The notes beneath the pieces were generated by a model, which was not told the DNA's origin, searched no databases, and saw only the letters and a program-made list of their open reading frames with translations. Positions 1-11,511 of a DNA stretch of 11,511 nucleotides are shown here, in pieces (position 1 is the stretch's first letter; every line of letters begins with the position of its first letter). The DNA lies in IMG/VR virus record IMGVR_UViG_2579778919_000009, positions 1-11,511 of that record; one strand, written 5' to 3'. The translations under genes were made by a program, and so were the position numbers. This DNA is from a virus. Lineage: Duplodnaviria; Heunggongvirae; Uroviricota; Caudoviricetes.

Positions 1-495
1 GTGTCTGATTCTATGAGTTACGCTGTGCTAGTTGCCGCAACTCTATTTATGGGGATAGGGTTGCAGATTGCGTGGTTCTTTTTTTCTAGTTTTATTAAAC
101 GCAAAAGAATTGAATCAAGGATATCTGAGATTTCTATTGCTATAGGGAAAAATGCTGAAAATCCAGAGAATGAGGCCTGCGCACTGAATTACCTTAAAGA
201 AAAGTTTTCCCCTGAAAAATTTGAAAATAGAATTACTGATGCTCTTGGATTGGTAATATCAGTAATTCATATGCCACTAAGTTTGCTGATAACAGTGTGG
301 TACTTCGCCATGATCGCCGGAAGAATATTTGGTTTCATGAATATAGAGCCTGTAGTTCTTTGGGTTCCAATGATACTGCAACTGTTGTTAAGCGTTGCTA
401 TCTTTATTTTTTCTGTTTTTATAAAAATTGTCTTTGGAAGATACCCCGGAGAAGCTAAGGGATTTAATAAAGAATTCATAAAAACTATAAAATAA
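1..495 (+). CDS. Small AT-rich integral membrane protein (about 3 predicted TM helices); 5' end at or beyond window edge; possible moron / superinfection-exclusion-type gene
   Basis: ORF open from base 1 (GTG; first ATG at 13) to TAA at 493-495. Hydrophobic stretches [76 protein letters not shown]. Visibly AT-rich compared with the rest of the window. Convergent with the 613-aa virion protein gene. No family recognised by eye. Confidence 0.5.
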
Positions 496-517
496 ATGCC
501 GTCCTTGGCTTACAGTG

Positions 518-2359
518 CTACTGCCGGGTCGCTTCGTTAGCTAAGAGCGGGCGCACGGCAGTAGCAGCCTGATTTAGCGCTCTTTCATAAGCTGGCGTTC
601 CAGCTTTAGTGTTTGCCAGACGTAAGAGCGCATTCCTTGCTGCTTTGGACTCATACAAACGCATCATTGCACCAAAACCAGCCTCAAGCCCCATTGATAC
701 TCCAAGAGTCGCAGTTGCGCCAATCGTCCTTATCCTGTTGGCTTGTGATTGCCCCGTCTGAGTTACTACATTTGCGGTGTCTGACCTTGCTGTTTGCTGT
801 AGAACTTCATGAAGAGCATCGAGCTCTTTCATGTGCTTTCCAGAAAAAATAGTGTTGTAAATTTCACCGCCTGACTGAGATTTAAGCTTATTAACTTCAG
901 TGATGAACTTGGCTGGAGAGTCACCGGCCTTTTCCGCTATTTTGCTGACGTAAGCTGCACGCATAGCATCTTTCCCTTTATCATCCAATGCGCTCCAGAT
1001 TCGTTTCACGTCAGATGGTTTTCTGCTTAATACAACGGTATTTATAAGTTCAGGACTGGCTTCACTGCTTGCCTTGTTGAGCTTGTTAGCAATGTTTTTA
1101 TTAAGCACCTTATTATAAACGTTTGCATAATCTGAATTTGCTTTAAGGTATTTTGCTGCGTCTGATGCACCGAGGTTTTTAGCAACTGCGTTACGAAGGT
1201 CTTTTGACATTGCATTCTCTACCATATTGGTAGCTGCTTTTGCCTGGTTGGGGAAGACCATAGCATCTCCCTGAACATTAGATCTAAATGCTGTTCTGTG
1301 CTGACGCAAGAGATCAAACGTAACATCCAAATCAGTTGCAGGGTTTGCTAATTCTTCGCGTAGGTTACGCAAGGATGTAAGCAGGCTTTGATTGGCAGAC
1401 GTCCCAAGCCGTTCCTGTCTTGCGATCGCTGTATTCAGAGCATTCATAGTGTTTGTGGTATCAACTGCGGCATTCCCCATTTTATTGGTGACGTCATTGA
1501 TAACAGCGCCAGCGGCATCCTTCCGTCCCCTTAACGTGGTGGTCAGAGATTTCACCACATCATCCGGGTTGTACTCACCAAAACGGTCAAAATAATTACT
1601 TACCAACTTACTACGCGTTGCATATTGCTCCGCTCGCTTTGAGCCTGTCCCGAGCAAAGCCCCCTCGGCATCCTGAGTAAGGCCGCGAGTGAAAGCATTT
1701 TTCGGCGGGATAACATCAGATGTCATTGGTGTCACGCCCATCGATTCTGATGTGGCAATTTTCTTCGCCACTTCTGGCGCAATATCACCTTTTATAGCCG
1801 TTATTCCACGCCCTATTCCCTTTGCTGCTGCGGAAAGAACCCCCTGAGCGGCAAGGTTAACTCCGGCATTTTTAGCTGCATTTTGTGCGAAATCGCCTTT
1901 CTGATTTGCGGCCTCTGCCAGTGATCCAATAGCCATGCTTCCTGCCGTTCCAACTCCTGGAACTAAATACCCACCAATTGTTTCACCGGCTTGTGCGTAT
2001 GGGTCTGTCGGTCTGTCTACTGGACGATAAACATCATCCAAAACCTTGGGTCCACCAAGCCCCTGACTGATTGCATTAATCAGACTTGCGCCGCCCTGCA
2101 ATACGTCAAATGGTATGTTTACCAGACCACGACCAGCCTGCTCTGCAATTTGCCCTGCACTTTGACCACCTGTGAGCCAATCGCCAGCTTGTTGCATCAA
2201 TGATGGTTCTTCACGTGCTGGTTCATTATTGGCCTGATTAACTGTTTGTTGCTGAACAGCCTGACCAGCAAAATACTCATCAATGGCGGTGCCAATATCT
2301 TCCGTGCTCGTACCATCAGGGAAGGTAAATGTCTTACCGTTTGCAGTTACTTTCATCAT
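518..2359 (-). CDS. Phage internal virion / DNA-ejection (DNA transfer) protein, P22 gp16-like, 613 aa
   Basis: Long ORF rich in Ala/Gly/Gln/Asn with a Gly/Ala-rich segment ([23 protein letters not shown]...). Size and position (after a gp20-like segment, before a small membrane protein gene) match the P22 gene 20 - gene 16 arrangement. Start ATG overlaps the upstream stop (ATGA), suggesting translational coupling. Family assignment is from memory, not a search. Confidence 0.6.
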
Positions 2360-3933
2360 TCCACCGTAAATTGAATGCCTGATTTTGAGGTATATGATCC
2401 GGATTGACTCTGCTGCTGTTGGGTATTTGTCGGTTGTTGGCTATTGCTCTGTTGTTGACTATTTGCAACACTTGAAACCACCAAAGCATCATAAACGCGA
2501 CCAGACTGACCACGTAATGAGTTATATTGGCCCTGCATTTTTCGCATTTTTGTTTCAGTAGCAGCCTTGGAATCACCAGGCTGAGGCAGGTACATTTTGG
2601 AATACTCCTGCATCTCTGGCAGAGTAATTGCTGCACCTGTTTCTGGGCGCAAAATTGCATACAAGGCGTCTCTCGCATTTACCATATATTGCTGCTCCGC
2701 TGGTGATAGGCTTAAATTTGCAATAGTCCCATCACCAAGAGAGCGATTTATTAATGCAACTCGCTTAGGGTCAATGCTTTTACTAAGCTGATTCATTGAG
2801 TCCATTGAATCTTTTAATCGCAAAGCAAATCCTGCCGCCTTCTTGGAACCCTCATTAGCCTTATCTATGATGCTTTGCGCTTGTGGCAAACTAATTGGTT
2901 TAATGCCATCACCAGATATAGGTTGGTTTAGTTTTCCGGCTTCCTCGCTGCCATCGGTGTAATACTTAGTTACCGAGCCATCAGGATTGGTTTCAACCTT
3001 AAGTAATTTCTTAGCATTGGGATTAATTCCCGCCGCTGCCGCAAATGCCGCTGCACCATCTGGATCCGCCTTTAACATTTGCGCGTACTGATTGTAATTC
3101 TGCATTGCGGCTGTTGGTGCATATGCTGACGTTAACGCATTTGCTCGGCTAATATCCTGCCCTCTCGCCTGAAGTGCTTCGCTGGCCTGATTGCTGCGGA
3201 TTGTCTCTGCCAGTCTGCCTCGGTCAATCTCACGACCAGCTATCTTGTCCTGAACAGCAAACGCCTTTTCTGGCCCAAGTGCACCGAGAGACATAGTAGT
3301 CAGCATGTGTGATAGCTGCTCTGGATTCTGGATACCTGTCTGAATCATCCAGTCAGCATTAGCCCCCACACGATTTAACCTGTCCTTGTTGTCAGTAATG
3401 AATTTACTGTAGGCTTCCGGTCCCTGAGAAAGAGCGACGTTAGCCCTCATGGCTAAATCGCCCATATCGTTGCGTTGCTGCTCATTAAGACCGGAAAACG
3501 CCTGTTGTGCCTGTGCAACAAACGCTGGATTTCCAGATCTGATACTGAGAACGTTTCGTCCAGCAACTGGAGAGAGTTCGACGGTGGCATCATTGCCCAT
3601 GCCGGAGGCGCTGGAGGTTTCGGCTGAGGATGGCACAGGGCATTTTCCTTTGACGAGCACCCTGCCACCATTATCAAGCTTGCGCCGAAGAGCATCATTT
3701 TCAGCTTTCGCATCAGCTAACTCCTTCGTGTATTTAGCATCGAGTGCATCAGCATCACGCTGGCGCTGCTGCATGTCAGTAATGGTGGCAGTCGCCTGCT
3801 TCAGCTCACTGACTTTTTTATCACGCTGCTCTTTGTAGGCGATGGCATTATCACGGTAATGATTGACCGCCCATGACAGGCAGACGATGATGCAGATAAC
3901 CAGAGCGGAGATAATCGCGGTGACTTTGCTCAT
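2356..3933 (-). CDS. Chimeric ORF: Rz-type i-spanin N-terminus (about 120 aa) fused in frame to about 400 aa of ejection-protein-like sequence (P22 gp20-like)
   Basis: N-terminus [30 protein letters not shown]...[19 protein letters not shown] closely matches lambda Rz as I recall it (TM anchor plus coiled coil). Rz is about 150 aa, but this ORF runs on for 525 aa with Ala/Gln/Asn/Ser-rich sequence and no Rz-like C-terminus. Rz start overlaps the R stop (ATGA). Confidence 0.6.
3453..3713 (-). CDS. Rz1-type o-spanin lipoprotein embedded in the +1 frame of Rz; C-terminus extended/altered by the same junction
   Basis: [22 protein letters not shown]... has a lipobox-like signal (VAGC) followed by a proline-rich [16 protein letters not shown] segment, as in lambda Rz1. 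It is 86 aa against about 60 for lambda Rz1; the tail after about residue 55 is unrelated. Confidence 0.55.
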
Positions 3934-4268
3934 ACCTCAACCTCTCTGACCGTTCCGCCTGCTTCTTTGAATTTTGCAATCAGGCTGTCAGCCTTATGCT
4001 CGAACTGACCATAACCAGCGCCCGGCAGTGAAGCCCAGATATTACTGCAACGGTCGATAGCCTGACGGATATCACCGCGATCAATCATCGGTAAAGCGCC
4101 ACGCTCTTTAATCTGCTGCAGTGCCACAGCGTCCTGGCTTTTCGGAGAGAAGTCTTTCAGTCCAAGCTGCTTACGGTAGGCATCCCACCAACGGGAAAGA
4201 AGCTGGTAACGTCCGGCGGCTGTTGATTTGAGTTTACAGGCATAACCCTGTACAACATCAGGAGGCAT
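3930..4268 (-). pseudogene. R: Endolysin R (lambda-type lytic transglycosylase) C-terminal fragment; N-terminal about 55 residues including the catalytic region missing
   Basis: KLKSTAAGRYQLLSRWWDAYRKQLGLKDFSPKSQDAVALQQIKERGALPMIDRGDIRQAIDRCSNIWASLPGAGYGQFEHKADSLIAKFKEAGGTVRE is near-identical to the C-terminal about 100 aa of lambda R from memory. The first 11 codons (MPPDVVQGYAC) are unrelated and are encoded by the sequence that forms the upstream/RBS region of the opposite-strand replication gene. Confidence 0.85.
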
Positions 4269-4273
4269 CCAGT

Positions 4274-5101
4274 ATGGGGTATGTCTCTATACACCGCCAG
4301 TTTATGGACAGCAGGCTCTATAAGGACTCTCAGGCAGTACATCTTTGGCTTCACTTAATCCTCAAGGCTAATCACGAATCTACTGTCGTCAATACGGATA
4401 TCGGTCCGATAACTGTTGATCGCGGTCAGATGATAACTGGACGCCCGTCGCTGGTCAGAGAAACATTCATCCCCGACAACAAAGTTCGGAGCTTATTACG
4501 GACTTTTGAGTCGAAAGGTATGCTTAATATTTGCTCGATGGGGAAGAAATTTAGCCTGTTTACAATCGTTAAATATGACGATTTTCAGGCAAAAAATTGT
4601 CCAACGGTTGTCCAACAGTTGTCCAACGCAAACACCAGTAATGGTGCGGCTCTCAGCGGAGATTGTCCAACGGTTGTCCAACGGTTGTCCATAAACAATA
4701 ATATAAATAATATCTCTAATACTGACGTATTAGAGAGTGCTACAGCAGACAAAAAGTCTGACAAGAAAAAACCTTCCGTCAGCTGTCAGGATGTTGTCGA
4801 TGCTTACCACGAAATCCTTCCTGAAGCGCCAAGAATCCGCGCACTGAATGACAAGCGTAAAAACCAGATCCGAACGTTCTGGCGCAAAGCCGGAGTGATA
4901 ACCCGCCAGCTTGACGGGCATGGGTTCACGATGCAGGACTGGAGAAATTATTTGAGCTACGTAGGCGAAAATTGCCGATGGATGTTCGAAGAGCGTCCAA
5001 ACCATCAACGCGGAACTGTCTGGCACAAAAAGGGATTTGATTTCCTGCTTAACGATAATACCTACCTGAAAGTTCGTGAGGGTGAACACGATGACCGATA
5101 A
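4274..5101 (+). CDS. Replication initiator protein (lambda O / P22 gp18 functional class) with origin iterons inside its coding sequence
   Basis: Good RBS (GGAGG about 8 nt upstream of ATG 4274). Origin-type iterons and an AT-rich region sit mid-gene, as in lambda O. The stop overlaps the start of the downstream helicase gene. Confidence 0.7.
   Translation: MGYVSIHRQFMDSRLYKDSQAVHLWLHLILKANHESTVVNTDIGPITVDRGQMITGRPSLVRETFIPDNKVRSLLRTFESKGMLNICSMGKKFSLFTIVKYDDFQAKNCPTVVQQLSNANTSNGAALSGDCPTVVQRLSINNNINNISNTDVLESATADKKSDKKKPSVSCQDVVDAYHEILPEAPRIRALNDKRKNQIRTFWRKAGVITRQLDGHGFTMQDWRNYLSYVGENCRWMFEERPNHQRGTVWHKKGFDFLLNDNTYLKVREGEHDDR
4597..4695. repeat. Origin iterons: two clusters of three tandem 11-bp repeats (TTGTCCAACGG / TTGTCCAACAG / TTGTCCAACGC, then TTGTCCAACGG x2 and a degenerate TTGTCCATAAA)
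   Basis: Direct tandem repeats read at about 4597-4629 and 4663-4695, separated by about 33 bp. They encode the repetitive linker CPTVVQQLSN...CPTVVQRLS of the initiator. Confidence 0.75.
4696..4740. other. AT-rich putative DNA-unwinding region with short palindrome CTCTAATA-N6-TATTAGAG next to the iterons
   Basis: Sequence ATAAACAATAATATAAATAATATCTCTAATACTGACGTATTAGAGAG lies immediately downstream of the iterons, the typical lambdoid ori layout. Confidence 0.5.
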
Positions 5102-6146
5102 TTTTTATGCGCCGCCCCATAGCATCGAGGCAGAGCAGGCGGTGATTGGTGGATTGCTTCTGGATGATGACAGCAGTGAGCGCGTCCAGAAGGTTCTGGC
5201 GATGCTGAAGCCTGATTCATTTTACAGCCGGCCACACAAAATCCTTTTCGAAGAAATAACCAGAATGCACCGGGAGCAAAAGCCAGTAGATGGCCTGACG
5301 CTTTTCGATGAACTGGAGCGTAAATCGTTAACTGTGTCTGTTGGCGGTTTTGCTTATATCGCTGAGATCGCAAAGAACACGCCAAGCGCAGCAAACATCG
5401 TTGCCTATGCAATGCAGGTTCGTGAAACCGCAATGGAACGCTACGCCATCAACCGTATGACTGAAGCGACGGAATTGCTCTATTCCCGCAACGGAATGAC
5501 TGCAACGCAGAAGTACGAAGCTATTCAGTCGATTTTCACGCAACTGACAGACCATGCAAAAACCGGATCGCGTCGCGGCCTTCGTTCATTTGGTGAGGTC
5601 ATGGAAGACTGGGTTAGCGACCTTGAGAAGCGATTTGACCCGTCAGGCGAACAACGAGGAATGAGCACAGGGATCCCATCGCTGGACAGGATGCTGTCAC
5701 CGAAAGGTCTGGTGAAAGGCTCTCTGTTTGTCATTGGCGCTCGCCCTAAGATGGGGAAAACGACGCTATACAGCCAGATGGCAATCAACTGCGCAGTGCA
5801 TGAGAAAAAGCCCGCTCTGATGTTCAGCCTTGAAATGCCAGGTGACCAGATACTGGAAAAACTGGTAGGGCAGAAGTCTGGTGTTAACCCGAATATTTTT
5901 TACCTTCCGGCGACAAATGACGCTGATGACGGCTATCAGGGTGATTACGATGGTGACTTCAACAGGGCGATCGAAACAGCCAATCGCTTGAGTGAAATCG
6001 ACCTGCTTTACATCGACGACACGCCGGGATTATCTCTGGCTCAAATCGTCAGCGAAAGTCGTCGAATCAAGCGAGAAAAAGGATGTGTTGGCATGATTCT
6101 GGTCGATTACAGGGAGAAGGCGCATGAGACTCGAAAGCGTAGCTAA
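5091..6146 (+). pseudogene. DnaB-family replicative helicase (P22 gp12 class), C-terminal about 110-120 aa missing
   Basis: N-terminal DnaB signature NFYAPPHSIEAEQAVIGGLLLD, Walker A GARPKMGKTT, Walker B-like MILVDY. The ORF stops about 10 codons after Walker B, with an unrelated tail (REKAHETRKRS) that overlaps the Q start region. Likely true start is ATG 5091 (the ORF track starts at 5076). Confidence 0.7.
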
Positions 6147-6603
6147 ATTTCATTCGCCAAAAAGCCCGATGATTAGCGACTCACCACGGGCTACAGCTTC
6201 TGACTCTCTTTCCGGTACTGATGTGATGGCTGCTATGGGGATGGCACAATCACAGGCCGGATTCGGGATGGCTGCATTTTGCGGTAAGCACGAACTCAGC
6301 CAGAACGACAAACAAAAGGCTATCAACTATCTGATGCAATTTGCACACAAGGTATCGGGGAAATACCGTGGTGTGGCAAAGCTCGAAGGAAATACTAAGG
6401 CAAAGGTACTGCAAGTGCTCGCAATATTCGCTTATGAGGATTATTGCCGTAGTGCCGCGACGCCGGGTGCAAGATGCAGAGATTGCCACGGTACAGGCCG
6501 TGCGGTTGATATAGCCAAAACGGAGCAGTGGGGGAGAGTTGTTGAGAAAGAGTGCGGAAGATGCAAAGGTGTCGGCTATTCAAGAATGCCAGCAATCAGC
6601 TAA
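6124..6603 (+). pseudogene. Q: Late-gene antiterminator Q (lambda Q type), C-terminal about 50 aa missing/replaced
   Basis: MRLESVAKFHSPKSPM...CRDCHGTGRAVDIAKTEQWGRVVEKECGRCKGVGYSRMP matches lambda Q from memory, including the CxxC...CxxC zinc motif. It ends after about 159 aa (lambda Q is about 207). No PR'/qut or holin follows. Confidence 0.75.
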
Positions 6604-6605
6604 CT

Positions 6606-6766
6606 TAACGACGCCCATGTTTCACTCCTACTTTGGCTAGTCTGTAAACACCAACAAGGCGCTCTGCGAACGCCCTGTTATTTGCTGCGGCTACCACTAA
6701 TCCCTCAGGTGAATCAGGGTGTCGAATCTCTTCTTTTTCCTGGTATTTCTTACGACGTTTTGTCAT
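6606..6766 (-). CDS. Small basic ORF (53 aa, MTKRRKKYQEKEE...) occupying the position of the 5' end of the replication gene downstream of cII/oop
   Basis: SD-like GGAGT about 4 nt upstream of the ATG. The start codon overlaps the -10 of the oop-type promoter on the other strand, which is where the O start sits in lambda. It ends at the junction with the inverted Q fragment. No recognisable family. Confidence 0.3.
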
Positions 6767-6769
6767 AAT
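6741..6769 (+). promoter_or_regulatory. Po-like promoter for oop RNA (TTACGA - 17 nt - CATAAT)
   Basis: Sigma70-like hexamers with 17-nt spacing, placed just upstream of the oop-homologous sequence. Confidence 0.5.
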
Positions 6770-6776
6770 TACTCCT

Positions 6777-6853
6777 GTAGATTGATCCAGTAATGACCTC
6801 AGAATTGCATATCAATTTGCTTAAAATCCTCGGTGGCGGCCGGGGATTTTTTC
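6777..6853 (+). ncRNA. oop: oop-like antisense RNA overlapping the 3' end of cII, ending in an intrinsic terminator
   Basis: GTAGATTGATCCAGTAATGACCTCAGAATTGCAT...CCTCGGTGGCGGCCGGGGATTTTTTC closely resembles lambda oop RNA as I recall it (the block GATCCAGTAATGACCTCAGAA appears identical). Terminal hairpin CCUCGG/CCGGGG plus U-tract. Antisense to the last about 18 codons of cII. Confidence 0.7.
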
Positions 6854-7095
6854 TTTGTGATTCCATCCAATGCATACTTAAAAGCCCTGCTAATCGGACT
6901 GATGTCTGATGCCATTCCGAAAGCACACAAGACCGAAGCAATAAACCTCCAGTCCGTTCTGCTTATCTTCGATTCATGACAGCCAATCATCTTTGCCAGA
7001 CCGCGCTGGGTAAGCGTTGACAGGTTGATGAGTAAATCAGTTTCAGCGCGATCAATTTCTCGCTGTGTTGGCTTGCTATAACTTGCTTGTGTCAT
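6799..7095 (-). CDS. cII: CII-family transcriptional activator
   Basis: HTH region (LAKMIGCHESKISRTDWRFI) and C-terminus (KKKSPAATEDFKQIDMQF) resemble lambda CII (KSQISRWKRDWI, NKKRPAATERSEQIQMEF). Sits downstream of cro and nutR, as in lambdoid phages. Confidence 0.8.
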   Translation of the reverse strand: MTQASYSKPTQREIDRAETDLLINLSTLTQRGLAKMIGCHESKISRTDWRFIASVLCAFGMASDISPISRAFKYALDGITKKKSPAATEDFKQIDMQF

Positions 7096-7106
7096 TTGTT
7101 AATTTT
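7073..7106 (+). promoter_or_regulatory. PRE-like CII-dependent promoter (TTGC-N6-TTGC around the -35 region, -10-like TAATTT), reading antisense through cro toward cI
   Basis: TTGCTATAACTTGC direct-repeat tetramers with 6-nt spacing lie inside the 5' end of cII on the opposite strand, the same layout as lambda PRE. Confidence 0.45.
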
Positions 7107-7179
7107 CCAATAGTGAATAGTTAGTTGAAAGGTATGCGTGGAAACGCATATGGCCTTAGTTGGTCAGATATCTTGGGGC

Positions 7180-7225
7180 TCGCTTTGTCAGCGACGTAGG
7201 ACGAATGTCCATTGTGAAAAGAGCG
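7180..7225 (-). promoter_or_regulatory. nutR: boxA (CGCTCTTTT) followed by a boxB hairpin of the P22 type (loop GACAAA)
   Basis: On the - strand, just downstream of the cro stop: CGCTCTTTTCACAATGGACATTCGTCCTACGTCGCTGACAAAGCGAGC. The boxB stem-loop matches the P22-type GCGCUGACAAAGCGC rather than lambda GCCCUGAAAAAGGGC. A 7-bp stem hairpin at about 7133-7150 may be part of tR1. Confidence 0.55.
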
Positions 7226-7232
7226 GTGTTAC

Positions 7233-7433
7233 TTATGCAGTTGTTTTTTTGTTACTTGGGAAGGGCTTTATTTCTTCCGCATAAACGCTTCCATCAGCGT
7301 TTATAGTTAAAAAAATCTTTCGGCCTGCATGAATGGCCTTGTTAATCGCGCTTTGATATACGCCGAGATCTTTAGCCGTCTTGGTTTGCCCAAAGCGTAT
7401 TGCATAATCTTTCAGGGTTATGCGTTGTTCCAT
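7233..7433 (-). CDS. cro: Cro repressor
   Basis: 66-aa product [66 protein letters not shown] is essentially lambda Cro (one or two substitutions, from memory). Confidence 0.95.
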
Positions 7434-8247
<814 letters not shown>

Positions 8248-8278
8248 TTGTTTTATTTTTCACGTAATAGGATGATTT

Positions 8279-8620
8279 ATGACACAATTTCAACTTGCAT
8301 TAATCGCTAGAGAAGTTGATGGAGAAGTCATCCATCTTCGCACCAAAGACGGATACATCAATGCCACCGCGATGTGCAAGTCTGCGGGGAAGCTACTTGC
8401 TGACTATACACGACTAAAAACAACACAAGATTTTTTTGATGAATTATCACGCGATATGGGGATTCCCATATCGGAGTTAATTCAATCATTTAAAGGCGGA
8501 AGAGCAGAGAATCAAGGGACTTGGGTTCATCCAGACATCGCAATTAATTTAGCTCAGTGGCTATCTCCAAAATTTGCAGTGCAAGTATCGAGATGGGTGC
8601 GTGAGTGGATGTCAGGTTAA
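8279..8620 (+). CDS. KilA-N domain protein (113 aa) in the rexA/rexB position, co-transcribed with cI
   Basis: YINATAMCKSAGK...ENQGTWVHPDIAINLAQWLSPKFAVQVSRWV fits the KilA-N domain pattern as I recall it. SD AGGATGA upstream of the ATG; only about 31 nt separate it from the cI stop, with no terminator between. Confidence 0.65.
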   Translation: MTQFQLALIAREVDGEVIHLRTKDGYINATAMCKSAGKLLADYTRLKTTQDFFDELSRDMGIPISELIQSFKGGRAENQGTWVHPDIAINLAQWLSPKFAVQVSRWVREWMSG

Positions 8621-8659
8621 AGAGCGCCTGCCGAACTCCCTATCCACCTTAAGCGGTAT

Positions 8660-8965
8660 ATGACAAACCGAGGCAGAGTTCCTCATACGCACTTTTCTAT
8701 GCTTAATGAACTGACGTTTAACTTGGTTGCGCCACTTGAACAGGCCGGATATACGCTGCCAGAAAAAATGGTCCCTGATATTTCAGAGGGTAGGGTTTTC
8801 TCGCAATGGCTCCGTGACAACCGGGGGGTTGAGCCGAAGACATTCCCAACATATAACCATGAGTACCCAGATGGCCGGACATTCCCGGTACGTCTATACC
8901 CAAACGAATATTGCAGATTTCAAACAATACTTCAACGAAGTGTGGCTGCCTCAGTACGCTCCTAA
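8660..8965 (+). CDS. Hypothetical protein, in the same frame as the KilA-N ORF and separated from it by a single TAA; probable frameshift near 8890-8910, after which the alternative frame continues to 9038
   Basis: 8279 and 8660 are in the same frame, with 13 sense codons and one TAA (8618-8620) between them. Weak RBS before 8660. The overlapping ORF 8727..9038 has a protein-like C-terminus (NIADFKQYFNEVWLPQYAPKYFAERDQRALTLIEKIML). Confidence 0.45.
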   Translation: MTNRGRVPHTHFSMLNELTFNLVAPLEQAGYTLPEKMVPDISEGRVFSQWLRDNRGVEPKTFPTYNHEYPDGRTFPVRLYPNEYCRFQTILQRSVAASVRS

Positions 8966-9047
8966 ATATTTTGCTGAACGAGACCAAAGGGCATTGACGT
9001 TGATTGAGAAAATCATGCTACCTGACCTTGATTCCTAAATGTTATTC

Positions 9048-9073
9048 CCGGCCACAGAGCCGGGTTTTCTTTG
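9048..9073 (+). terminator. Intrinsic terminator closing the cI / KilA-N operon
   Basis: CCCGGC-CACAGA-GCCGGG hairpin (6-bp GC stem) followed by TTTTCTTT, about 10 nt after the 9038 stop. Confidence 0.7.
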
Positions 9074-9112
9074 CCTCACGATCCCCCTCACCCAAGAACA
9101 CATAACCAATTG

Positions 9113-9138
9113 TATCTATTTGAAAATAAATAGATACA
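9113..9138. repeat. Perfect 10-bp inverted repeat GTATCTATTT-N6-AAATAGATAC between the terminator and OL3
   Basis: Read directly; AT-rich, so more likely a protein-binding site than a terminator. Confidence 0.6.
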
Positions 9139-9225
9139 ACTCACTAAACATAGCAGTTCAGATCTCTCACCTACCAAACAATGCACCCCTGCAAAAAATA
9201 AATTCATATAAAAAACATACAGATA

Positions 9226-9295
9226 ACCATCTGCGGTGATGAATTATCTCTAGCGGTGTTGACATAAATACCACTGGCGGTGATACTAAACACAT
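9226..9295 (+). promoter_or_regulatory. Left operator OL3-OL2-OL1 with PL promoter (-35 TTGACA, -10 GATACT), transcribing rightward in this window
   Basis: TATCTCTAGCGGTGTTGACATAAATACCACTGGCGGTGATACTAAACACATCAGCAGGACGCAC is near-identical to lambda PL/OL1/OL2 from memory. An OL3-like site AACCATCTGCGGTGA lies about 20 bp upstream. Confidence 0.9.
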
Positions 9296-9355
9296 CAGCA
9301 GGACGCACTACTCACCAGGGCGGTGAATATACAACGATTCAAATATGAATCTACG

Positions 9356-9370
9356 GCGCTGACAAAGCGC
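9356..9370 (+). promoter_or_regulatory. nutL boxB hairpin, P22 type (GCGCTGACAAAGCGC)
   Basis: 5-bp GC stem with GACAAA loop, about 65 nt downstream of the PL start and about 130 nt upstream of the N-like start codon. No convincing boxA identified. Confidence 0.55.
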
Positions 9371-9498
9371 AATAACCAAAGTGAACTTTGGGGTGAATGC
9401 AGAAGCTAACCTTCTCGGCGGAGGCGCTTTGCAATGATTACGCTACCGGAGTTAGTCGCCCGGCTGTATTCACCGCCAAAGTTCACCAGGAGGTCTAT

Positions 9499-9666
9499 AT
9501 GACACGCAGAACTCAGTTCAAAGGCAATTCACGTTCTCGTCGTCGTGAGCGTTTAAAGGCAAAGGCATTAGCTAACGGCGTACTGGCCCGCGAAGAAGCA
9601 ATAAGTTCAGAAGTATTACACCGCCCTACGCCATCATCAATGTTGCGGCGATCGGCATCACCTTAA
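9499..9666 (+). pseudogene. N-type antiterminator, N-terminal arginine-rich motif retained (about 35-40 codons), remainder lost at a deletion junction
   Basis: Strong SD (CAGGAGG) before ATG 9499. MTRRTQFKGNSRSRRRERLKAKA resembles the P22 gp24 arginine-rich motif (GNAKTRRHERRRKLAIER, from memory). Only 55 codons against about 100 for N proteins; the 3' part overlaps the RecT frame. Confidence 0.55.
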
Positions 9667-10364
9667 ACCCAGCCAGCAAACTTGCTTATCTAGTTCCGCG
9701 CGACGGCATGGTTTGCCTTGATATCAGTTATATGGGATTGCTCCATATTGCAATGGAGTCTGGTGTTATCTCATGGGGTCAGGCAAAACTTGTTCATGCT
9801 AACGATACCTATGAGTCAAACGGGCTTGATAAAGCACCAACCCATAAATACAACGCCTTCGGTGATCGTGGTGATATCGTTGGCGTTTACTGCACAGTTA
9901 AGACGCCAGCAGGTGATTATCTAACGGAAGAGATGAGTCTGGCTGAAATTGAGGCTGTAAGGAAAACAAGCAAGGCGGCATTCAGCGATAAAGGACCATG
10001 GGTAAATCACTGGAATGAGATGGCGCGAAAGACGGTCGTAAAGCGTGCAAGCAAGTATTGGCCTAAGGCATCACGTCTTGATAGTGCTATTCACGTACTA
10101 AACGAAGAAGAAGGTGTATGGACTGAACCAGTTATGCCGTACAAATCAGAGGAAGATATCCGCGAAGATGAACGGAAACGCCAGCAGGAAATAACGGATA
10201 AAGCACAACTTCTTTGTGATGAAATGGCTCAGGCAGAAAACATGGATGATTTGAAGCGATATTTTGCAGAAGCATATCGCCTGACATCTGGAATGAAATT
10301 GCAGCATAACGTACAAGCCATTTACATAGAATGCAAAGCGAAACTGGAGGTTGCCAGTGAGTAA
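9576..10364 (+). pseudogene. recT: RecT-family single-strand annealing protein lacking about 50-60 N-terminal residues and any start/RBS of its own
   Basis: Frame open from 9576. ...YAIINVAAIGITLNPASKLAYLVPRDG... and KGPWVNHWNEMARKTVVKRASKYWPKA align to E. coli RecT (FVSAIVQCSQLGLEPGSALGHAYLLPFGN; GPWVTHWEEMAKKTAIRRLFKYLP). First in-frame Met is at 9708. Confidence 0.75.
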
Positions 10365-10839
10365 ACTATATGAAATAGCCAATGAATACGCAAAATTGAT
10401 GGATTCAGATTTAGAGCCAGAGATGATTGCTGACACAATAGAAGGCATGGAAGGAGAATTTACCGATAAAATAGAGCAACTTCTTTCCGTCATTAAAAAT
10501 GAATCTGGTTATGCTGAACGCCTCAAGGAAGAGGCAAAGTCACTGAATGAGCGAGCCGCAGTAATTCAAAATAAGATTGACAGCATCATATCATATATAG
10601 CGTCATCGCTTGAAATGGTAGGCAAGAAAAAGATTAGAGCAGGTATTCACCAGGTAACAATCCGCAAACCGTCAGAAATTGTAGAAATAATCGACTCAAG
10701 CGCCCTTCCTCCTGAATACGTTGAGTTTGAAACAACAATTAAAGCCGACAAACTGGCAATCAAACACCAACTAAAAGCAGGAATAAATATCCCCGGCGCT
10801 CAACTCAAAGTTGGGAAACCTTCACTTCTTATCAAATAA
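10351..10839 (+). CDS. Siphovirus Gp157-family protein (recombination-module accessory protein)
   Basis: LYEIANEYAKLMDS...DTIEGMEGEFTDKIEQL...GKKKIRAGIHQVTIRKPSEIVEIIDSSALPPEYVEF...LKAGINIPGAQLKVGKPSLLIK fits the Gp157 family pattern as I recall it. Probable start is GTG 10357 (GGAGG 6 nt upstream); it overlaps the RecT stop. Confidence 0.7.
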   Translation: MPVSKLYEIANEYAKLMDSDLEPEMIADTIEGMEGEFTDKIEQLLSVIKNESGYAERLKEEAKSLNERAAVIQNKIDSIISYIASSLEMVGKKKIRAGIHQVTIRKPSEIVEIIDSSALPPEYVEFETTIKADKLAIKHQLKAGINIPGAQLKVGKPSLLIK

Positions 10840-10850
10840 CGGTATCGCCT

Positions 10851-10985
10851 ATGAAAAAGACTCCATGGGAGAAATGGGAAGTCGATTTCTTGCGCGAAGT
10901 AGCGGCGACAAGGCCATATAACAACAAACCCTGTCGCTGCCACTCGCGCAGCAAAATCAGAGGTAAGGAGATCAAGACTTACGGC
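10851..10985 (+). other. Short remnant ORF (MKKTPWEKWEVDFLREVAATR...), 5' end of an unidentified gene running out of frame into int-derived sequence
   Basis: ATG 10851 opens a 44-codon frame. From about 10905 onward the DNA is int sequence read in a different frame. Confidence 0.25.
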
Positions 10986-11511
10986 TGACGAATACCTGAA
11001 AATTTATCAAGCAGCAGAATCATCACCATGTTGGCTCAGACTTGCAATGGAACTGGCTGTTGTTACCGGGCAGCGAGTTGGTGATTTATGCGAAATGAAG
11101 TGGTCTGATATCGTAGATGGATATCTTTATGTCGAGCAAAGCAAAACAGGCGTAAAAATTGCCATCCCAACAACATTGCATGTTGATGCTCTCGGGATAT
11201 CAATGAAGGAAACACTTGATAAATGCAAAGAGATTCTTGGCGGAGAAACCATAATTGCATCTACTCGTCGTGAACCGCTTTCATCCGGCACAGTATCAAG
11301 GTATTTTATGCGCGCACGAAAAGCATCAGGTCTTTCCTTCGAAGGGGATCCGCCTACCTTTCACGAGTTGCGCAGTTTGTCTGCAAGACTCTATGAGAAG
11401 CAGATAAGCGATAAGTTTGCTCAACATCTTCTCGGGCATAAGTCGGACACCATGGCATCACAGTATCGTGATGACAGAGGCAGGGAGTGGGACAAAATTG
11501 AAATCAAATAA
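10903..11511 (+). pseudogene. int: Integrase (lambda Int type), catalytic domain only; N-terminal arm-binding and core-binding domains deleted; no xis
   Basis: Int frame open from 10903: ...GHITTNPVAATRAAKSEVRRSRLTADEYLKIYQAAESSPCWLRLAMELAVVTGQRVGDL...HELRSLSARLYEKQ...HKSDTMASQYRDDRGREWDKIEIK. This is near-identical to lambda Int residues about 168-356 from memory and keeps the catalytic residues, but about 170 N-terminal residues are absent. Confidence 0.9.

Follow-up and report, generated by a model that had tools for sequence, protein, structure and literature searches.

An open reading frame of 525 codons on the minus strand of a stretch of viral DNA of 11,511 nucleotides (positions 1 to 11,511 of IMG/VR record IMGVR_UViG_2579778919_000009; hereafter the window) joins the first 133 codons of an Rz spanin gene in frame to codons 100-491 of a P22-type gene 20, and is very probably a scar of prophage decay without function, left behind by an illegitimate deletion. 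From ATG to stop the frame occupies exactly 2356..3933 (-), and its product matches two Pfam families: Phage_lysis (Rz), with profile positions 1-114 of 126 aligned to residues 29-142, and Inj_translocase (P22 gp20), with profile positions 85-217 of 218 aligned to residues 130-262. Nucleotide alignment to Kapi1 Rz and to the intact gp20 of E. coli Combat2C1 maps the junction to 3532/3531, which is codon 133/134; the initial annotation, which had called for such an alignment, had recognised the in-frame fusion of Rz to an ejection protein correctly but had put the switch around codon 125. The Rz-derived part (3531..3933, -) has approximately 96% nucleotide identity to the Rz genes of HK620 and Kapi1 up to 3531, the gp20-derived part (2356..3532, -) has 99.2-99.4% nucleotide identity to intact prophage gp20 from 3532 onward, and the two share a microhomology of two nucleotides (AA at 3532-3531). 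Where about 400 residues of ejection-protein-like sequence had been estimated, there are 392, corresponding to residues 100-491 of the 491-residue DNA transfer/ejection protein and 100% identical in amino acid sequence to many free-standing proteins of that length.

The Rz-derived part begins as a typical Rz, as had been proposed from its membrane anchor, coiled coil and embedded Rz1 and as is now borne out by the Pfam matches, hydropathy and alignment to the Rz proteins of Kapi1 and lambda. It comprises an N-terminal transmembrane helix (residues ~4-23), the first coiled coil (CC1), a linker and the first ~13 residues of the second coiled coil (CC2), and lacks the last 22 residues, which make up the remainder of CC2 plus the C-terminal domain; over residues 1-87 it hardly differs from Kapi1 Rz and is similar to lambda Rz. 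The transmembrane helix is the sole strongly hydrophobic stretch of the chimera (Kyte-Doolittle maximum 2.6, in agreement with the annotation of Kapi1). In line with the membrane-anchored periplasmic product that the initial annotation had envisaged, the product would be a type-II inner-membrane protein in which the Rz transmembrane helix and CC1 lead into a periplasmic portion made of gp20 residues 100-491. A search of NCBIfam assigned no significant family to the chimera, gp16, the endolysin fragment R' or SieA and gave a sub-threshold PspB-like match on the transmembrane region, and a sequence search of the PDB found no solved relative, the sole match being a spurious adhesin (E = 0.007).

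In intact relatives the two parents are separate, complete genes with approximately 12.2 kb between the breakpoints (17150 to 29385 in the coordinates of Kapi1, and likewise in Combat2C1). The gap holds the 3' end of Rz, terS, terL, the portal, scaffold and coat genes, gp4, gp10, gp26, gp14, gp7 and the 5' end of gene 20. A deletion that fused a lysis gene to an ejection-protein gene, as originally suggested, is supported. The further suggestion that the whole virion morphogenesis block was removed holds for terS through gp7 and fails for gp16, which is in the window, and for the tailspike gene, which is in the rest of the element. The proposed course of events begins with a P22-like (Lederbergvirus-type) prophage that had a lambda-type integrase and immunity and, in one E. 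coli lineage, resided at attλ (ybhC|ybhB-bioA); an illegitimate deletion of ~12.2 kb at the microhomology of two nucleotides would have taken out Rz codon 134 through gene 20 codon 99, and the reading frame would have been kept by a one-in-three chance. In the other two frames, translation would end 25 or 14 codons further on.

An alternative to a fusion would be a long protein encoded natively by an intact phage, and the initial annotation had named full-length homologues in intact phages as the observation that would establish it. None exists outside the chimera's own locus in the searches made. Among the best 120 of 3060 homologues in a search of 5.8 billion proteins, both Pfam domains occur together in two clusters, the chimera itself and a further-deleted copy, and the rest of those 120 are free-standing gp20 proteins of 491 residues, which match the C-terminal 74% of the query at 99-100% identity. 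Only one protein that spans the junction emerged from an exhaustive HMMER search with residues 1-262, again a further-deleted derivative of the same locus, and the Rz part is ~96% identical in nucleotide sequence to free-standing 155-residue Rz genes; a native long protein was rejected on the results of the protein and HMMER searches. The junction is absent from 5426 complete RefSeq E. coli genomes and from 50,697 INPHARED phage records, and exact-junction scans of GTDB representative genomes found nothing, which would also fit an error of assembly or scaffolding. The exact chimeric protein is nevertheless present in 273 blocks on 133 contigs of public assemblies, in the same context throughout, and these include NCBI contigs of 5.2-5.3 Mb, ENA and JGI metagenomes and an IMG/VR contig. 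Many independently assembled E. coli genomes and gut metagenomes share the junction to the nucleotide; because these include isolate assemblies with single contigs of more than 5 Mb and metagenomes from different projects, it is not an assembly artefact. The probability that either an artefact or a native long protein explains the reading frame is negligible.

The carriers are nearly clonal. Their context is always a defective prophage at attλ (ybhC|ybhB), the whole element is 99.8-100% identical among them, and the chimeric reading frame is identical in nucleotide sequence in 11 loci. Most carriers have an intact chimera, gp16 and sieA, and since sequence divergence is essentially zero, the intactness of the reading frame is uninformative on selection; in the preferred account, the chimera would be under no selection and would have survived intact only through the recency of the event. 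Two kinds of derivative have eroded further. In one (P0135; loci L020 and L021, four contigs), window positions 1194-3464 are deleted and Rz::gp20' is fused to gp16', which costs gp16 two-thirds of its length and the chimera most of its gp20 sequence; in L020, the chimera sits directly behind pR-cro::R'. In the other (P0016, locus L022), 36 residues are deleted within the chimera and gp16 is broken. Three in-frame junctions are thus found at the locus (Rz::gp20, Rz::gp20'::gp16' and Cro::R'), which is not unusual among ~6 co-directional junctions.

The same prophage bears at least five further illegitimate junctions and has lost pR', the holin gene, the N-terminus of endolysin, functional N and Q, and the N-terminal part of the integrase. 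Upstream of the chimera lies R', the 3' fragment of a lambda-type endolysin gene (3930..4235, -, with the boundary at 4235 set by megablast), which aligns with residues 58-158 of the 158-residue R proteins of Kapi1 and lambda and lacks the 57 N-terminal residues; the listed open reading frame runs on to a fortuitous ATG at 4268. Between R' and cII/gp53 is an inverted O'-P'-Q' block (4234..6595, +), which, by its match to HK542 (98-99% nucleotide identity) and its junction sequences, is on the strand opposite cro and cII and is antisense to the reading direction of the chimera. O' lacks ~8 codons, P' (DnaB-like) is truncated at its 3' end, with a deletion at P'|Q, and Q' lacks ~50 C-terminal codons; the inversion is accompanied by loss of the 3' end of Q, pR', S and the 5' end of R. 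A simple reciprocal inversion was rejected, as the single break in O preserves both of its ends but the partner breakpoints in Q and R differ by ~1.06 kb; the event was an inversion plus loss. Elsewhere in the element, the N match is confined to profile positions 3-54 of 100, RecT has lost its N-terminal end and only a C-terminal piece of Int is left. Among the immunity genes, cro, cII and a cI of the S24 peptidase type remain intact.

Expression of the chimera is doubtful because the late promoter, Q, the holin gene and the N-terminus of endolysin are all gone. A scan of positions 1-7600 for sigma-70 promoters and terminators returned 11 promoter-like sites where 10.9 are expected, none of them adjacent to the chimera, and only a pR-like promoter stands out (7458..7486, -; TTGACT-17-GATAAT, between cI and cro), which is the best match in the scan at 10 of 12 consensus positions and corresponds to the lambda-like PR annotated in HK542. 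It is the nearest recognisable promoter that reads toward the chimera, ~3.5 kb upstream and controlled by cI. A pattern search for the cII box TTGCN6TTGC found three matches where 0.99 are expected, of which one marks the pRE position and another lies at 6411..6424 (-), antisense inside Q' at the expected position of a paQ-like promoter; because the block is inverted, this putative promoter now faces R'-Rz::gp20-gp16, which may be transcribed from it conditionally. An antisense promoter of the oop/pO type at the 5' end of O was considered and dropped, as the O gene is of a different type, its break is at codon ~8 and nothing recognisable is present. No Rfam family matched anywhere in the window at E<=1, and therefore no oop- or sar-like RNA is available to explain expression.

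These signals could allow transient expression of R'-Rz::gp20-gp16 as a functionless or mildly toxic by-product upon SOS induction, by read-through from pR or a cII-activated paQ-like promoter. Intact cI, cro and cII, the good match of pR to consensus, the cII box and the placement of the chimera immediately after pR-cro::R' in the L020 derivative all lend themselves to such a by-product, but the truncation of N makes antitermination unlikely and polymerase must traverse 2-3.5 kb of antisense O'/P'/Q' DNA, and we regard it as improbable. In the favoured explanation, the chimera has lost its own promoter, pR', qut and the C-terminus of Q being deleted, and only the cI-repressed pR and the possible cII-dependent paQ are left upstream; because these are distant behind antisense DNA and N is truncated, the chimera would be silent or only weakly and conditionally transcribed, and we infer that it lacks both expression and function.

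As an ejection protein the chimera cannot act, because there is no virion and the N-terminus of gp20 is missing. Its residues 134-525 are identical to residues 100-491 of P22 gp20/Sf6 gp12-family proteins (PF16928, Inj_translocase) that circulate in E. coli prophages, and the conserved C-terminal region, the last 33-66 residues of which are essential in P22 gp20 (PMC10461980), is therefore whole; in contrast to that family, the chimera lacks the first 99 residues (profile positions 1-84) and has an inner-membrane anchor instead. The intact gp16-type gene that follows (518..2356, -; 612 codons, 609 of 612 residues identical to Combat2C1 gp16) starts within the stop codon of the chimera as TGATG. 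The translational coupling that had been pointed out in the initial annotation is hence supported by an intact gp16 and a stop/start overlap, yet the same overlap occurs between gp20 and gp16 of intact prophages and is not a product of the fusion. Unlike a P22-type ejection system, the locus has no gene 7, gene 14, portal, coat or terminase, none of the P22-like virion genes that were deleted being in the window or elsewhere in the 21-kb loci of the carriers, and therefore no packaging or ejection is possible.

The periplasm is the normal workplace of gp20, and the C-terminal regions of both gp20 and gp16 are genetic targets of SieA, whose gene lies two genes downstream (PMC10461980). The window cuts sieA at its edge (3' part at 1..495, +; 188 residues in full, with PF26849 SIEA matched on the corresponding gene of loci L002-L007). 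A domesticated fusion might be imagined in which Rz-tethered periplasmic gp20, perhaps together with gp16 and SieA, poisons or decoys the gp7-gp20-gp16 conduit of incoming P22-like phages as a new form of superinfection exclusion. Retention of the gp20 C-terminus, gp16 and sieA and the direction of the paQ-like box are compatible with such a role, which is nonetheless very unlikely: the reading frame has no adjacent promoter and promoter-like matches are at the level of chance, PADLOC with PADLOC-DB has no defence-model match for the chimera or gp16, the lack of divergence since the fusion offers no signal of selection, sub-lineages have dispensed with the larger part of the gp20 sequence and with two-thirds of gp16, and the tether is on the N-terminal side of gp20, which is probably far from the inner membrane in the extended-gp20-tube model (PMC10461980). 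The most specific version, an exapted inner-membrane-tethered gp20 fragment that shares a transcript with gp16, driven by a cII- or SOS-responsive promoter brought into line by the Q' inversion, giving decoy exclusion that complements SieA, has a slighter chance still; if true, a decoy would bear on the biology of phage defence. As a decay scar, the chimera matters mainly for annotation, since databases call it a 'phage DNA ejection protein' or an 'acyltransferase' when it is actually a relic of two unrelated phage functions. PGAP sometimes calls just an internal version of 395 residues. The locus also offers a clean, datable view of how a P22-like prophage at attλ was eroded stepwise through microhomology, its derivative stages being kept in sub-lineages.

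Compared to Rz-Rz1 spanins of the lambda/HK620 type (PF03245, PF06085), the chimera has the transmembrane anchor and CC1, and its first 133 codons are 86% identical to the whole 155-residue Kapi1 Rz (nearly identical over the 133 residues shared) and 59% identical to lambda Rz at the protein level. The embedded Rz1 reading frame (3453..3713, -; 86 codons) is likewise present in the +1 frame, with a signal peptide, a lipobox (VAGC) with its cysteine and a proline-rich core; it matches positions 1-40 of 41 of the Pfam Rz1 profile (E = 4e-20) and is identical to the 68-residue Kapi1 Rz1 over the first 58 residues. The altered tail that had been noticed in it consists of 25 codons of gp20 read in the +1 frame, which replace seven native terminal residues after residue 61 of 68, where the sequence upstream of the junction ends. 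The difference from functional spanins is at the other end of Rz: the alignment stops at about lambda residue 133, whereas the distal CC2 and Rz1-binding C-terminal end of lambda Rz span residues 121-152, residues 143-151 contact Rz1, and nonsense mutations throughout the periplasmic domain, codons 151 and 152 included, abolish lysis (PMC5295617). Because the extreme C-terminus of lambda Rz1 is dispensable (PMC5295617), the decisive defect of the embedded Rz1 is the missing end of its Rz partner and not its own exchanged tail. A lambda/HK620-type lysis cassette also has a holin, an endolysin and a late promoter, whereas this locus has no holin gene, no active endolysin and, by comparison with HK542, no pR', qut or 3' end of Q. 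With most of CC2, the C-terminal Rz1-binding end, the holin and an active endolysin missing, spanin activity of the chimera is not possible.

Parallels are also found among defective prophages. The P22-like prophages of E. coli ETEC1716, at the same ybhC attachment site, and of E. coli strain 81 have likewise lost morphogenesis, lysis or replication genes by internal illegitimate deletion, leaving immC on one side, gp20/gp16-sieA-mnt-arc-ant-tailspike on the other, and partial genes that abut (terL'|needle', gp16'|cI). The breakpoints are different, and the annotation treats the genes at those junctions as partial or out-of-frame pseudogenes, not as one long reading frame. Decay of the same kind arose independently in these two prophages. 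The cryptic lambdoid prophages of E. coli K-12 also retain relic lysis genes (rzpD/rzoD of DLP12, the rzpR pseudogene of Rac, rzpQ/rzoQ of Qin), which are stranded Rz/Rz1 remnants in grounded prophages devoid of late regulation, as is the remnant described here; the chimera differs from them in that its Rz relic runs in frame into another virion gene to form a long open reading frame.

The open reading frame at 2356..3933 on the minus strand runs for 525 codons from ATG to TGA without interruption. Pfam assigns its residues 29-142 to the Rz domain (PF03245, profile positions 1-114 of 126) and residues 130-262 to Inj_translocase, the P22 gp20 domain (PF16928, profile positions 85-217 of 218); both profiles are covered only partially, and therefore one end only of each parent is present. 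By megablast, positions 3531-4235 match R and Rz of HK620, Kapi1 and APC_JM3.2 at ~96%, and positions 1-3532 match sieA-gp16-gp20 of E. coli P22-like prophages at 99.2-99.4%. A three-way nucleotide alignment gives the junction as GTTCTCAGTATCAGATCTGGAA/ATCCAGCGTTTG, where the 'AA' at 3532-3531 is the sole sequence common to both parents. The chimeric protein (Rz::gp20) thus consists of Rz residues 1-133, ending NVLSIRSG, followed by gp20 residues 100-491; its sole strongly hydrophobic segment is at residues ~4-23, and in the gp20 part Ala makes up 13% of residues, Gln 10% and Asn 6%. The initial annotation had described an in-frame chimera of this kind with an embedded Rz1, and the ORF, the two Pfam domains, the embedded Rz1 and an exact junction were all found; it came close in placing the junction around codon 125 and the gp20 part at about 400 residues, but the exact values are 133/134 and 392. 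The embedded ORF (3453..3713, minus strand) matches Rz1 profile positions 1-40 of 41 in Pfam and starts with a signal peptide bearing a lipobox. It is the 68-residue Kapi1 Rz1 up to residue 58, and the junction is reached only after residue 61; the last seven native residues are replaced by 25 gp20 codons read in the +1 frame, which bears out the altered tail ascribed to it. Downstream, the gp16 gene (518..2356, minus strand) is identical at 609 of 612 positions to gp16 from an intact prophage, and its start overlaps the chimera stop as TGATG. Translational coupling to an intact gp16 gene, as had been noted, is present but was inherited rather than created by the fusion, because intact gp20 and gp16 in E. 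coli Combat2C1 have the same overlap.

If the 525-residue protein were a native long protein rather than a fusion, intact phages should encode full-length homologues. A search of a 5.8-billion-protein set returned 3060 matching proteins, and among the 120 best-scoring of these only two clusters contain both domains: the chimera's own and P0016, which is the chimera minus a further 36 residues. The remaining matches among those 120 are the 491-residue gp20, with 99-100% identity over 74% of the query. In an exhaustive HMMER search with query residues 1-262 against 1.84 billion cluster representatives, all matches listed but one fit essentially a single half of the chimera: Rz-side matches end by ~residue 154 and a few gp20-side alignments begin as early as residue 77-109. 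P0135, the exception, is the chimera additionally fused to the gp16 C-terminus. Twice tested, the native-protein alternative failed: among the matches listed, only the chimera and its deleted derivatives span the junction, and a search of phage records found it in no intact phage. In intact relatives the breakpoints are ~12.2 kb apart (17150 and 29385 in Kapi1; ~12.16 kb in Combat2C1), separated by the Rz 3' end, small ORFs, terS, terL, portal, scaffold, coat, gp4, gp10, needle, gp14, gp7 and the gene 20 5' end. A single illegitimate deletion of this interval would explain the chimeric gene, as had been proposed for the fusion of the lysis gene to the ejection-protein gene; with the two-domain proteins among the matches listed confined to this locus and ~12.2 kb between the breakpoints in relatives, that interpretation holds with small corrections.

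An assembly artefact was considered and rejected, as the exact 525-residue protein occurs in 273 blocks of public assemblies and on 133 contigs. It is encoded on single contigs as long as 5.2 and 5.3 Mb (NCBI), in ENA gut metagenomes, in JGI data and on one IMG/VR contig; all 5426 complete RefSeq E. coli genomes lack the junction. The ORF is nucleotide-identical in the 11 loci compared, in a surrounding element 99.8-100% identical to the window. The element is always located between ybhJ-ybhC and ybhB-bioA-bioB, the lambda attachment site, with flanks 100% identical to E. coli. At the same locus (2356-3540), the NCBI annotation of some assemblies has only a 395-residue version (P0004), whose start is a non-ATG codon exactly at the junction (MRSGNPAF...) and which hides the Rz-derived part; 'acyltransferase' is among the source names there. 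In practice, the database name 'phage DNA ejection protein' hides a chimeric relic.

The host element is, judging from its gene content, a thoroughly grounded prophage. It is predicted to be unable to excise because Int (11047-11511, plus strand) is a 154-residue C-terminal fragment and xis is not present in the element. RecT (9708-10364, plus strand) lacks ~55 N-terminal codons, and N (9397-9666, plus strand) covers profile positions 3-54 of 100 only, with a junction at ~9628/9629 into recT. On the minus strand, a lambda-like pR is followed by cro, cII and a gp53-like ORF, all intact; at 6595/6594 the sequence passes into Q, which is oppositely oriented and entered at its truncated 3' end, and the block of truncated remnants Q'-P'-O' (6595-4234) is inverted relative to cro-cII, with junctions at 4234/4235, 6110/6113 and 6594/6595. 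The break in O falls at one point (~codon 8), and the sequence on either side of it survives; at the partner breaks ~1.06 kb (HK542 coordinates) is lost, comprising the Q 3' end, pR', qut, the holin gene and codons 1-57 of R. A separate deletion of 2.8 kb in the nin region has brought P' to within 13 nt of the Q start, on its upstream side. Microhomology of 0-2 nt at all junctions checked, and an IS element at none, suggests that the O'-P'-Q' junctions arose in a single complex break-and-rejoin event or by serial illegitimate recombination. The Rz::gp20 junction is one of at least six illegitimate junctions in the element. O' contains an iteron-like array of 11-nt TTGTCCAACGG repeats (4585-4702, plus strand), presumably the origin, and a 59-60-nt copy-number polymorphism (4615-4673) sets apart some carriers (loci L014, L016 and L022). 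Immediately downstream of cI, a BstA-like abortive-infection gene (8279-9038, plus strand) appears to be split into three plus-strand ORFs: the first has a KilA-N domain (8279-8620), the second (8660-8965) matches positions 160-226 of the PADLOC BstA profile, and the third, in another frame (8727-9038), matches positions 236-272.

The intactness of the chimeric ORF is uninformative on selection, because its gp20 part has zero divergence from free-standing gp20 and all chimera copies are identical. Erosion of the locus continues in sub-lineages. One of these, represented by L020 and L021 (four Logan contigs), has lost window positions 1194-3464, leaving the 380-residue Rz::gp20'::gp16' ORF (P0135), and positions 4095-7260, leaving an in-frame Cro::R' ORF of 111 residues; the shortened chimera is immediately behind pR, directly after Cro::R' (5539-7013 in L020, 464-1938 in L021). 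One metagenome scaffold (L022), to be treated with caution, has five more deletions of 60-240 nt, including 36 residues of the chimera, and a gp16 frameshift. In other carriers cro-P' is missing or an IS5-family element has inserted.

Transcription of the chimera is doubtful, because a late promoter and complete Q are absent upstream, a promoter scan at chance level (11 found, 10.9 expected) located none adjoining it, and the lambda-like pR (7486-7458, minus strand; TTGACT-17-GATAAT) is under an intact cI and separated from the chimera by ~3.5 kb that includes antisense Q'/P'/O', while N is truncated. One cII-type TTGCN6TTGC box is at the pRE position (7073-7086, plus strand), antisense in the cII 5' end; a second (6411-6424, minus strand) is antisense in Q', where the paQ of lambda would be. 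Because the Q' block is inverted, this predicted paQ-like site now faces R'-Rz::gp20-gp16 and is a possible conditional expression route for the chimera. The lambda-type immunity region, with a 237-residue repressor containing an S24 peptidase domain (7534-8247, plus strand) and a 66-residue Cro (7233-7433, minus strand), seems to be intact. Carriers are therefore probably immune to phages of lambda immunity, and such protection could plausibly account for the persistence of the remnant.

If translated, the chimera would be a type-II inner-membrane protein with CC1 and a CC2 fragment followed by gp20 residues 100-491 in the periplasm, a topology that follows that of Rz and is supported by the Kapi1 annotation and PMC5295617. 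Lambda Rz no longer supports lysis when nonsense mutations fall at sites across its periplasmic domain, codons 151 and 152 included, and it binds Rz1 through residues 143-151 (PMC5295617). Protein alignment places the chimera break at ~lambda Rz residue 133; because of this break, and because the holin and the N-terminal 57 endolysin residues are also missing, the chimera is predicted to be incapable of acting as a spanin. The part missing from R' includes the catalytic Glu19 of lambda R. Nor, by the gene content of the element, could the chimera be an ejection protein, because no virion genes remain. SieA genetically targets the C-termini of gp20 and gp16 (PMC10461980), and a membrane-tethered gp20 decoy could be imagined to complement it, but this is highly improbable given that PADLOC gives no match, no promoter adjoins the ORF and deletions run into it in sub-lineages. 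As a relic of deletion, the chimera is of low biological interest.

Other P22-like prophages have also left remnants. Those of E. coli ETEC1716 (L018, NZ_CP122880.1), at the same att site, and E. coli strain 81 (L023, NZ_CP088131.1) are independent and have similar internal deletions with partial genes abutting, at junctions different from those of the window (terL'/needle', P'/ninI', gp16'/cI). Each keeps the gp20/gp16-sieA-mnt-arc-ant-tailspike end, and P22-like remnants seem to retain the right arm repeatedly. The temperate P22-like phage φHS3 has been described as integrating upstream of ybhC (bioRxiv 10.64898/2026.05.19.726188). By descent, the two halves of the chimera belong to the well-known Rz/Rz1 spanin and P22 gp20 ejection protein families, but the whole lacks defining features of both and fits among the deletion-generated chimeric ORFs already known from cryptic prophages.
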